From the IMG/VR virus record IMGVR_UViG_647533159_000005: a stretch of 11,837 nt of DNA. One strand, 5' to 3'. Numbering within the stretch: the first letter of the stretch is position 1; the number at the start of each line of letters is the position of its first letter. The position numbers are program-made. Positions 6,001 to 9,000 of the stretch are shown piece by piece. Origin of the DNA: a virus. Lineage: Duplodnaviria; Heunggongvirae; Uroviricota; Caudoviricetes.

Positions 6001-9000
6001 ACGGGGATAACATCCCGTTTTAATTCACAACAGCGAACAGAGTAATTACAGGGGAAGGCATGACAACGCTGACCATTAACCGAAAACCGAAAGGCATTTA
6101 CGGCACGCAGTCAGAAACGACGCAGGCGGCACAGCAGCAGGATAAAACCACATCGGCGCATAAAGTGATACCCGGCAATCAGAACGCACAGCAGAAGCCC
6201 ACAGGGGCGACACCGTGGCGGCATATGACCAAACGCCAGCGTAAAAACCGCAGACGCGTTAACCGCCTTATTGAATTGTGGCCTGACTTATTCAACAGGG
6301 AAGCACCGAAGCCGCTGAAGGTGGGGATATTTGACGACCTGATGCGGGATATCGCCGCCAGGGGGCTGACATTCGGGCCGGGGGCATTACGTGCGACGCT
6401 GGCATCCTATGCGCAGTCTCCGCGCTATTACCGCGCCCTGATAGCTGGTGGCGCACGTTACGACCTGAAAGGCCAGCCATGTGGGGAAGTGACACCACAG
6501 GAACAGCAGGAGGCAGAAACGCGGCTGGCAGCACTGAATGAAAAGCGCAAACGTCAGGCGACAAAGGAGAGGACAGGCGCATGATTCGTGACAGCAAAGC
6601 GGAAGAACTGGAGACTAAAGGCCTGTACCGGAGAGCGGCGGCGCGGTGGGCTGAGGTCATGCAGCTGGTGAACACCGATAAGGAGCGCGAACAGGTGGCA
6701 AAGCGTCGTGCGGAATGCATCCGCAAGGCAGCACGCCCACCCGTTATGGCGGATAACTTCGGGGCGCTGAAAGAGGCTGTAAACCGCACTCATGCGGTGA
6801 TGGGGATGGAAGACGCGGGTAAATCCGTCTGGCGGAACTACCCGAAGCAGCCTGGCAGCAACCAGTGATGCCGGATATTATCCTGAAAAATGATCATCAC
6901 TCCCGTGGGCGGATAACATAAAATCCTGCATATGCGCACATACACAGACGAAGCCGGAACAATCCGGCTTTTTTTACGGGTCCTTCCGGAGGGGGGGGCC
7001 TTACCGTGGGGCGACGGACGCGCGGGAATCGCCAAATTTTCGCATTTTTATCGGTCATCACCACCAGCGCAATTTATTGATAATGAAGGTTAAAAAAAAT
7101 TCCCGGTGTCGAAAACGCCTGTTTTTTGTTCATCACTGAATCATGCGCATCATGATACCAAGATACCCGGTATTGCTGCGTGATAACCCACAGGACTGGT
7201 GGCGATGCGTTATGGTCCGTGCGTTGCCATCTTCCTGGCCTGATGGCATTATCCGGCATGAACGAGCGGTTATTCTCCGTACTCTTAATCGTTGTTCATG
7301 GTTATTTGCTTTGTGGTAGCTAACATTTCCTGATGGTTATTATCCTTCTGCCCCGTAATCACGGGGATTTTTTTACCCGCGTTCTGCCGTTCTCCCCTGT
7401 GCTGTTGGTAGCGTCACGATGTGTCACGGCATGTCACCATCACGTCACGCTGATTGCGAAAGCCAGGATTAACCAGTACCGGAACGGGTAGCCCGATGTA
7501 TTGTTACCGTCCTGCCGGCTGGTGGAGTAATTGATAACGGTTATCATCAACGGGAGGGGCAGATCAAATCCCTGTGGCCCTGGATGTCAGGGACCGCCTG
7601 CCAACCCTTCTTCGCATCGCCGCAGGTTCGAAAACTTTTTTTTGGGAAGGTGCGCACAGAGTTGATAGATAAAACCTATCAGAGAAAATCACGTCAAACC
7701 CGCGTCATTGCTGGCATCGTTAAAAAAACTCACTCCACCAGCAGACTAAAAAACCGCGATTTTTCCGGTTTTATGGGCTGAAAAGGGGCTCCCTAAAAAA
7801 CATCTCTCACACTGCCGGACGGAGACGGAGATTTTTACGGGTCCTTTCCGGAGGTCTGAATACCGGGGGTACGAATACGCGCAATTCTTAACTGTTTATG
7901 AAAATTTTTAGGGGAAAAGCGTGTCGGTACTTCTCGCGCATAACTGTTTGTTTTCATTAAAATCGACAATCGGAAACATACGACACCATAACACCGGAAA
8001 ATCCCGTTTTTCTGGCGTTTCATGTCGGAGGTGGTTTTTGATGAGGATTTGATAGATGAATGTTAACAAAAAGAGACTGGCGGAGATTTTCGGTGTTGAT
8101 CCGCGCACAATTGAACGCTGGCAGACGCAGGGCCTTCCTCATGCATCTGGTGGCGGAAAAGGCGTGGAAGTGACTTTCGACTCTGCACAGGTGATCGAAT
8201 GGTATGCCCAGAGGGAGAAGGACATCGAAAACGAAAAACTCCGCAGGGAGCTTGATGATTTACGTGCTGCTGGTGAATCAGATTTACAGCCAGGCACAAC
8301 AGAGTACGAACGCTACCGTCTCACCAAAGCACAGGCGGACGGGCAGGAACTGAAGAACGCCAGAGAGACAGGGGAAGTTATAGATACTGAGTTCGCACTC
8401 TGTGCGCTTCGTGGTCTGGCGCGCCAGATTTCTTCGATCATGGATAGTTTACCGCTCACAATGCAAAGGCAGTTCCCCGCGATGACTCCGGCAATGATCG
8501 AGGGCCTGAGGAAAGAAACAGCACGCGCCTGTAATGCGTGCGCTAAAACTGCCGATAATCTACCCCGCATTCTGGAAGACTACCTGATGGAAACAACCGG
8601 AAACGTGCCGGAGAAATTACGGCAACAGAAAGGTGAGCGACAACCGCGCAATTATTGAACAAAACAGAGAAAGGATCTGATAACGTCATTTTTGGCCCAA
8701 AATGACCACTGTCAGATCCTTTCTTTTTTTGATGATTTTACGATTAAACAATGAGTTACAGAGAAGAAGAACGGATCTGACTTTTCCCGAAAAATTTTCA
8801 TAAACAGTTAAGAATTGCGCGTACCCGTCCCCCCGGCGCTTAAGGTTCCGGAAAGGACCCGCAGGAAATAGCTACCGTAAGGCGTAATTAAATATCCGGG
8901 GATGTGCCACGGAACAGCCTGCTGAATACAGGTCAGCGTGATGACGGTAAATAAAGAGAATATACGAGAAGGAAAAATATTAGTTTAAAAACTAATGTCC

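Follow-up and report, generated by a model that had tools for sequence, protein, structure and literature searches.

A Nu1-family small terminase with a diverged, satellite-specific C-terminal half in an island without a large terminase gene

Introduction

What does a small terminase subunit (TerS) do at a locus where no gene for the large subunit (TerL) is found? The question is raised by a stretch of 11,837 nucleotides (hereafter, the window) from the IMG/VR record IMGVR_UViG_647533159_000005, assigned to Caudoviricetes, which encodes a 200-aa TerS of the Nu1 family. In phages, terS usually overlaps or precedes a terL of the gpA type; here it is followed instead by a second cohesive end site (cos2) and then by a fimbrial gene. 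An earlier note on this DNA had proposed that the protein keeps the N-terminal regions of phage lambda Nu1 but carries a different, replaced C-terminal domain, which would either retarget it to a particular helper TerL or let it co-assemble with helper TerS while failing to recruit TerL. From the comparisons reported below, we consider it probable that terS provides the small terminase of a satellite of lambdoid phages, an island of the phage-inducible chromosomal island (PICI) type, which would bind the island cos and recruit a helper TerL.

Architecture and homology of TerS

The terS product is a complete Nu1-family small terminase in which the whole Nu1 architecture is kept, and it belongs to the Nu1 family as well as to the satellite TerS, a class already known. 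The PF07471 profile aligns with residues 1-162 over profile positions 1-162 of 164 (228 bits at a cut-off of 30; E=6e-68), PHROG 57 matches residues 1-190 (E=8e-64), and relatives in RefSeq carry the annotation that PHROG 57 has as well, 'terminase small subunit'. In the PDB, residues 1-98 match lambda TerS (6HN7_B, E=2e-39) and the winged helix-turn-helix (wHTH) domain matches 1J9I (E=6e-24) and 7LWR (E=5e-22); for the C-terminal domain of Nu1 there is no structure in the PDB. The AlphaFold2 (AF2) model, built from 54 homologs, has strands 2-4 and 40-42 and helices 5-12 and 16-24 in the wHTH domain (predicted local distance difference test score, pLDDT, of ~90), helices 43-75, 82-104 and 111-139 in the middle of the protein, and helices 145-163 and 169-180 at the C-terminus, beyond which a weak helix (186-192) leads into a disordered end, with pLDDT <50 for aa 195-200. 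These last six residues are due to the loss of the usual stop codon after KGE: the window reads GAG CGA CAA, with CGA instead of TAA, where the related island L037 reads GAG TAA CAG. The resulting 200-aa form is common to the window, L001, L028, P0023 and P0032.

The departure from Nu1 had been placed at 8476-8658, and these bounds are exact, 8476 being the first base of codon 141 (P) and 8658 the last base of the stop codon. Over residues 1-55, 56-100, 101-140 and 141-181, respectively, TerS is 62%, 76%, 48% and 20% (8/41) identical to lambda Nu1, 75%, 89%, 45% and 24% to phage 21 gp1, and 82%, 84%, 65% and 49% to Nu1 of PhiR5_1. Thus, the similarity to lambda Nu1 does fade near residue 141, as had been claimed, but it does not truly stop there: the alignment with TerS of lambda, 21, HK225, IdasGreatGrand and PhiR5_1 is ungapped up to aa 181, and tblastn matches to phage TerS span aa 1-176/180. 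Phage TerS with different TerL specificities diverge about as much in this region, the TerS of lambda and 21 sharing 31% identity in 141-181 and 57% in 1-140.

Searched on their own by BLASTP, the last 60 aa gave no meaningful match to lambda Nu1 (E=0.25, in the wrong register) or to phage 21 gp1 (E=10), and matched PhiR5_1 Nu1 in register over aa 141-179, with 51% identity, 77% positives and E=2e-13. The PhiR5_1 Nu1 gene overlaps a gpA-type terL, so that this match is essentially what the earlier note had named as counting against its interpretation. When a profile of 11 island C-termini was compared by hhalign with a profile of 12 lambda- and 21-type C-termini, 41 columns aligned in register (probability 97.6%, E=3.5e-12). 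The ungapped alignment, the PhiR5_1 match and the profile match together show that the C-terminal domain has diverged and was not replaced; it is no foreign domain but a homologous, colinear one, with two helices in the AF2 model. The C-terminus of TerS is therefore a diverged homolog of the gpA-binding domain that is 13-19 residues longer. The earlier observation is confirmed in part, and its interpretation supported in part: the region that differs from Nu1 is indeed the gpA-binding region of lambda, where TerS binds TerL via residues 100-181 (PMC6739421, PMC9026076).

The additional residues are specific to islands. A HMMER scan of 1.84 billion cluster representatives with TerS's C-terminal half (hereafter, the C-half) matched 98 proteins; alignments that extend past query position 86 (aa ~183) come from 4 island-type clusters only, and no non-island match among the 98 has a counterpart of aa 182-200. 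The tail was also considered as a remnant of the 5' end of a fused terL (compare MNTSEKQL), and this origin was rejected, since the DNA resembles the terS/terL junction of neither PhiR5_1, 21 nor lambda and holds no frame that reads like TerL.

Island context and absence of terL

The window is a PICI-like island in which genes for an integrase, AlpA, DUF4222, two primase remnants, a single-stranded DNA-binding protein (SSB), ProQ/FinO and PerC are followed by cos1-terS-cos2 and, on the 3' side, by an orphan K88-type fimbrial subunit gene, the phrog_1561 gene and a second PerC gene. A 92-94% identical island lies between tRNA-Pro/yejM and yejO in E. coli, and related islands are placed at tRNA-Pro or roxA/phoQ. 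Searched by tblastn, the window and 14 loci of related islands yielded no TerL. The gene therefore stands where a satellite terS is expected, in an integrase-AlpA-primase island without TerL, tail or lysis genes, whereas GpA TerL is always the next gene in the case of the phage-type TerS examined. The assignment of the protein to a mobilisable island, made in the earlier note, agrees with the missing terL and with the annotations of these islands. A larger sister group with the same C-half, found in O157:H7 and other strains, has the gene order int-AlpA-Icd-primase/helicase-SSB-(PerC)-hyp-gpE-like capsid-gpD-like-Nu3-like-terS-phrog_1561.

A satellite lineage of C-terminal halves

Full-length homologs were gathered with full-length TerS as the query, the C-terminal 80 aa having retrieved gene fragments only. 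The motif Y[LI]xETTG[ND]VP is present in 38 of 104 such homologs, which are 193-200 aa long, and two further homologs of 193-194 aa carry point variants of it (METTVNVP and LGDTTGNVP); the remaining ones are mostly 181-183 aa. Identity to the window TerS over aa 101-181 is 68-95% for each island-type protein and at most 58% for every phage-type TerS (PhiR5_1 and P0065, 58%; P0066, P0068 and P0072, 55%; phage 21, 37%; lambda, 34%). N-terminal identities to the window overlap, at 64-95% for the island type and 65-83% for the phage type, and the tail, aa 182-194, is kept in all island-type proteins. The satellite-specific module begins at about aa 98 of TerS, and the C-half (aa ~98-194) forms, in these comparisons, a discrete satellite-only clade and is a constant module of the satellite lineage.

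Of 5,426 complete E. coli genomes, 801 contain DNA of the C-half, so that islands bearing it occur in ~15% of the genomes, O157:H7, O26 and O55 strains among them, and it is always found in integrase-AlpA-primase islands. None of 40 rows evenly sampled from these matches overlapped terL. A search of genome contigs with the TerS protein yielded solely distant Shewanella-type relatives and no islands.

Across deeply diverged islands, the ratio of nonsynonymous to synonymous substitution rates (dN/dS) is 0.06-0.26 over aa 98-194, tail included, and 0.06-0.30 for aa 141-181; in the tail, dN is 0-0.1 and dS is saturated. The C-half, including the tail, is therefore maintained by selection. This bears on the possibility that cos-terS is an inert leftover, now functionless in this island, of a lambdoid prophage that has decayed, a view favored by the lack of terL in the island, the deletion in the primase gene of the window island, the truncation of terS to its last 25 codons in two relatives (L021 and L033) and the lost stop codon of the window copy. 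The open reading frame (ORF) is intact, however, and under the constraint just described, the module recurs in hundreds of genomes, always in integrase-AlpA-primase islands, and changes in cosB accompany those in the DNA-binding domain (see below), all of which makes an inert relic very unlikely.

The C-half is joined to many DNA-binding domains, with recognition helices that include RTISTWQN. In O157:H7-type islands and in L029 and L030, the same C-half is fused to an unrelated short HTH domain that is not of the Nu1 type (MKSHLMNKKNMAKSCRVSATAFDKWGV...) and has no match in the PDB; cos1 of these islands carries different repeat boxes (GGTGGTGGTT / CACCAACC). This constancy, whatever the DNA-binding domain, would also be expected if the C-half and tail bound not TerL but an island-encoded or capsid partner, thereby coupling packaging to satellite capsids. 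The phrog_1561 protein, conserved beside terS/cos2 in nearly all islands, is a candidate for such a partner, as are the gpE-, gpD- or Nu3-like proteins of the capsid-type islands, many islands having such genes just upstream. Yet the window island keeps the same C-half without capsid genes, the domain has its homolog in one that binds TerL and, to our knowledge, no contact between TerS and the capsid has been described in lambda; another partner is the least probable of the explanations that we considered.

The junction of the two parts of TerS can be seen in a recombinant pair. The island TerS P0055 (194 aa) sits in PICIs without TerL, and the phage-type P0068 (182 aa) adjoins GpA TerL, gpW and a portal gene. 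Between island L037, which encodes P0055, and prophage L039, which encodes P0068, the DNA is 100% identical from cosQ through cosN and cosB to terS codon ~114, the breakpoint of recombination, and divergent thereafter, which indicates that an island and a helper-type prophage recombined recently. The C-half of the donor prophage TerS is among the phage types nearest to the island type (55%).

Two cos sites flank terS

The window has the cosQ-cosN-cosB-terS layout of lambda and phage 21 directly upstream of terS (cos1) and a second complete cos, convergent with terS, downstream of it (cos2; Table 1). By blastn, cos1 is 77% identical to the phage 21 cos, and its R boxes, which hardly differ from the phage 21 boxes, fit the 21-like recognition helix of TerS (RTIERWQT, compared with RTIERWQS in phage 21). 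When four island types are compared, a change in the DNA-binding domain of TerS goes along with a change in the cos1 R boxes, a signature of a working TerS-cosB pair.

The R boxes of cos2, of the CAGATCC type, are constant in all islands and are the same as those in cosB of true lambdoid prophages (L043) and of phage SerU-LTIIb. L043 encodes a P0112-type TerS (recognition helix RTITGWQS) with a 21-like C-terminus and a GpA TerL with a 21-like N-terminus; cos2 may let helpers of the P0112 type package the island with their own TerS. Two functional cos sites have been reported for EcCICFT073 (PMC6092414). A hairpin just 3' of the terS stop codon (8662-8730) resembles a terminator and consists of the R2/R1 pair of cos2.

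The cosN region of both window sites (CCGGGGGTACGAATACGCGCAATTC) differs at most positions from the lambda/21/phi80 cohesive end GGGCGGCGACCT. The exact 29-mer of this variant was found only on IMG/VR contigs of 10-13 kb, and a closely similar cosN occurs, together with the cos2 R boxes, in L043-type prophages and SerU-LTIIb. An island-only origin of the variant was rejected, given these related sites in real lambdoid prophages that have TerL. Other islands have a lambda-type cosN, and L029 has the lambda type at cos1 and the variant at cos2.

Predicted role of TerS in packaging

If terS is the working small terminase of the island, its N-terminal wHTH domain would bind the phage-21-like R boxes of cos1, its central helices would oligomerise, and its C-terminal two-helix domain (aa 141-181) would recruit the gpA-type TerL of a helper prophage, whose motor would then cut at the island cos and package island DNA. 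A helper is invoked because the island has no TerL, and TerL binding is assigned to the C-terminal module because of its homology to the lambda TerL-binding region. The DNA-binding domain and cos1 would form a swappable part, gained by recombination with helper-type phages. Lambdoid prophages of the PhiR5_1/P0066 type are candidate helpers for this route, since their C-halves are nearest to that of the island and one of them has recombined with an island. Some E. coli PICIs encode TerS (PMC6092414), and satellite TerS is a core component of PICIs (PMC10085698). Retargeting to a particular helper TerL, the first of the two outcomes raised in the earlier note, is plausible.

Several points weigh against this role. 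The C-termini of phage TerS co-vary with TerL N-termini, which makes a single constant C-half odd if it is to match many types of TerL. In L037, cos1 and the DNA-binding domain are identical to those of the prophage, and yet the island C-half is kept; the island TerS adds no new DNA specificity there, and its benefit is left unexplained. The mosaic junction could merely reflect where homology permits crossover, there being no terL downstream. The TerS-encoding E. coli PICIs of IHE3034 and 18098 were not mobilised by resident prophages (PMC6092414), although their TerS may be of another type, and the window island, with a ~0.8-kb deletion in its primase gene, may itself be immobile.

The second outcome amounts to an interference subunit: island TerS would mix with helper TerS via the N-terminal 100 aa, and the C-half would fail to bind helper TerL or bind it wrongly, so that packaging is poisoned in the manner of Rpp. 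The N-terminal 95 aa of island and phage TerS are 64-95% identical, and in L037 they are identical to those of the prophage of the same type, which makes hetero-oligomers structurally plausible; blocking TerS dimerisation is a real PICI strategy, as Rpp shows (PMC6739421); and the constant C-half does not follow the phage C-terminal types. Nothing specific was found in support of co-assembly that fails to recruit TerL, however. A productive TerS needs a matching cos, and the island has retained one in full, with cosQ, cosN and cosB R boxes that suit its own DNA-binding domain. In addition, purifying selection acts on the C-terminal domain, a homolog of the one that binds TerL, and a pure poison would block packaging of the island too, unless helper TerS alone uses cos2. 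We regard interference as unlikely.

Returning to a productive TerS, a more elaborate version of it can be put forward tentatively, as a possibility that we would not rate as high as the general role. TerS could consist of two parts, namely a TerL-capture half that is constant and confined to satellites (aa ~98-194, tail included), accompanied by the constant, helper-type cos2, and an exchangeable DNA-binding domain with cos1, copied from whichever lambdoid helper is available, all within a flippable cassette with inward-facing cos sites. The constant half would then bind several classes of TerL or out-compete helper TerS.

Inverted repeats and orientation of the cassette

The cos1-terS-cos2 cassette is bounded by two pairs of inverted repeats (Table 1) and occurs in both orientations among close relatives. 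A flip of ~1.0 kb between the inverted cos copies distinguishes the window from L026, and L037 from L036, which are 99% identical islands; a flip of 3.4 kb between the outer repeats distinguishes the window from L001, L028 and L021. Since the two cos sites point toward each other, a fragment cut out between them would have the same overhang at each end and could re-anneal either way. Among capsid-type islands, the junction is co-oriented in 487 complete genomes and inverted in 5; a fast invertible switch was therefore rejected in favor of a rare polymorphism.

Features of the locus and neighboring genes

Table 1. Coordinates of terS, its domains, the cos sites and the inverted repeats (window numbering unless a related locus is named)
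Feature	Position	Strand	Evidence or remarks
terS, 200-aa Nu1-family small terminase	8056..8658 (stop included)	+	ORF, Pfam PF07471, PHROG 57, PDB matches
wHTH DNA-binding domain	8056..8220 (aa 1-55)	+	PDB 1J9I/7LWR, AF2 model, identities
Long helical linker/coiled coil (aa 56-100), then self-association region (aa 101-140)	8221..8475	+	Segment identities, AF2 helices
Homolog of the gpA/TerL-binding domain at the Nu1 C-terminus, in its satellite-clade form	8476..8598 (aa 141-181)	+	BLASTP, hhalign, AF2, dN/dS
Satellite-specific tail, no phage TerS counterpart	8599..8637 (aa 182-194)	+	Conservation in all island-type proteins
Read-through extension RQPRNY and stop	8638..8658 (aa 195-200)	+	Most relatives stop after KGE
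cos1	7836..8055	+	Alignment with lambda, 21 and PhiR5_1 cos; ends at terS start
cos1 cosQ, GGGTCCT	7839-7845
cos1 variant cosN region	~7863-7887
cos1 conserved TTTATGAAAATTTT	7895-7908
cos1 phage-21-like cosB R box GTCGGTACTTCTC	7923-7935
cos1 phage-21-like cosB R box CATGTCGG	~8020-8028
cos2, second complete cos, convergent with terS	8659..8885	-	Alignments, repeats, motif coordinates
cos2 cosQ	8860-8854
cos2 cosN region	8836-8812
cos2 R boxes with CAGATCC	8779-8773, 8719-8713 (inverted), 8679-8673
Outer inverted repeat, left arm	6999..7087	.	89 nt, 76% complementary to right arm
Outer inverted repeat, right arm	10337..10425	.	Bounds 3.4-kb segment holding cos1-terS-cos2
Inner inverted repeat	7838-7919 and 8781-8861		cos copies
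C-half with non-Nu1 HTH	L034:10683-11225; L035:10683-11225; L029:1253-1804

The primase/helicase gene (4054-5363; of the DUF927 type in L001) has an internal deletion relative to L001, L021, L026 and L028, with a junction near 4654-4665 and ORF remnants at 4054-4713 and 4866-5363, so that the window island may be unable to replicate. The orphan fimbrial subunit gene (9188-9988; K88 FaeG-like, PF02432, E=2.6e-52) has no usher or chaperone gene and lies within an insertion of ~1.1 kb (9004-10079) that separates cos2 from the phrog_1561 gene. L001 lacks this insertion, and a homolog with 61% identity occupies the corresponding site in L026. The phrog_1561 protein (104 aa, 10713-11027, E=1e-47), whose gene adjoins cos2/terS in nearly every related island, is a possible further component of the packaging module. 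The two PerC-family genes (6581-6868 and 11529-11837) are ~42% identical to each other, the second being possibly part of a neighboring module; a PerC-like protein of a PICI has been reported to repress LEE, the enterocyte effacement locus (PMC11773190).

Comparison with known systems

With lambda gpNu1 and phage 21 gp1, the window TerS shares the domain order, that is, wHTH, long helix, self-association region and C-terminal two-helix domain. It differs from them in that no terL overlaps its gene, in that aa 141-181 are just 20-24% identical, and in the added tail of 13-19 aa; the cosN region differs as well. The closest phage relatives are PhiR5_1 Nu1 (PV340545) and prophage TerS of the P0065/P0066/P0068 types, which are 71% identical over the whole length and 55-58% in the C-half; unlike the window protein, they have 182 aa and no tail, and GpA-type TerL is always next to them.

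Rpp of E. coli cos PICIs (EcCICFT073; 6HLK, 6HN7) is encoded in the same kind of island, beside the PICI cos, and has a wHTH domain like the DNA-binding domain of TerS; EcCICFT073 also shares with the window the presence of two cos sites per island (PMC6092414, PMC6739421). Rpp proteins are 139-154 aa long and are thought to lack the TerL-binding domain (PMC9026076), whereas the window protein is a full TerS. The similarity to Rpp suggested in the earlier note comes down to a match of RppC (6HLK) to HTH residues 5-54 with E=0.02, and, with 200 aa and a homolog of the TerL-binding domain in the window protein, its identification as Rpp was rejected. Heterodimers of the island protein with helper TerS are plausible, judging from the shared N-terminal sequence.

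In Gram-negative cos-type PICIs, Rpp is the sole worked-out means of hijacking packaging, and it depends on helper TerS, whereas the islands of a second class, very common in E. coli, encode a genuine Nu1-type TerS of their own. In the literature, TerS-encoding PICIs of E. coli are catalogued rather than dissected, and we found no study of the present class of proteins and no description of the lineage-specific C-terminal half and tail. If the C-half captures helper TerL directly, this would explain the spread of islands linked to virulence through PerC regulators and fimbrial cargo, and the C-half would offer a natural means to probe how TerS and TerL of lambda-like terminases meet, an interface whose structure is still unsolved. 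If it is merely an ordinary specificity variant, the gene is routine.

TerS of the pac-type PICIs of S. aureus (S. aureus pathogenicity islands, SaPIs) and of the Vibrio PICI-like elements (PLEs) offers an analogy, in that satellite TerS together with helper TerL packages satellite DNA (PMC6092414, PMC6739421, PMC11417361). These proteins belong to unrelated families and serve headful packaging, whereas the window TerS is of the cos/Nu1 type, has a satellite C-half and is flanked by two inverted cos sites. Should TerS consist of a constant TerL-capture half and an exchangeable DNA-binding domain, as tentatively suggested above, it would be the cos-phage counterpart, so far undescribed, of the SaPI TerS strategy.

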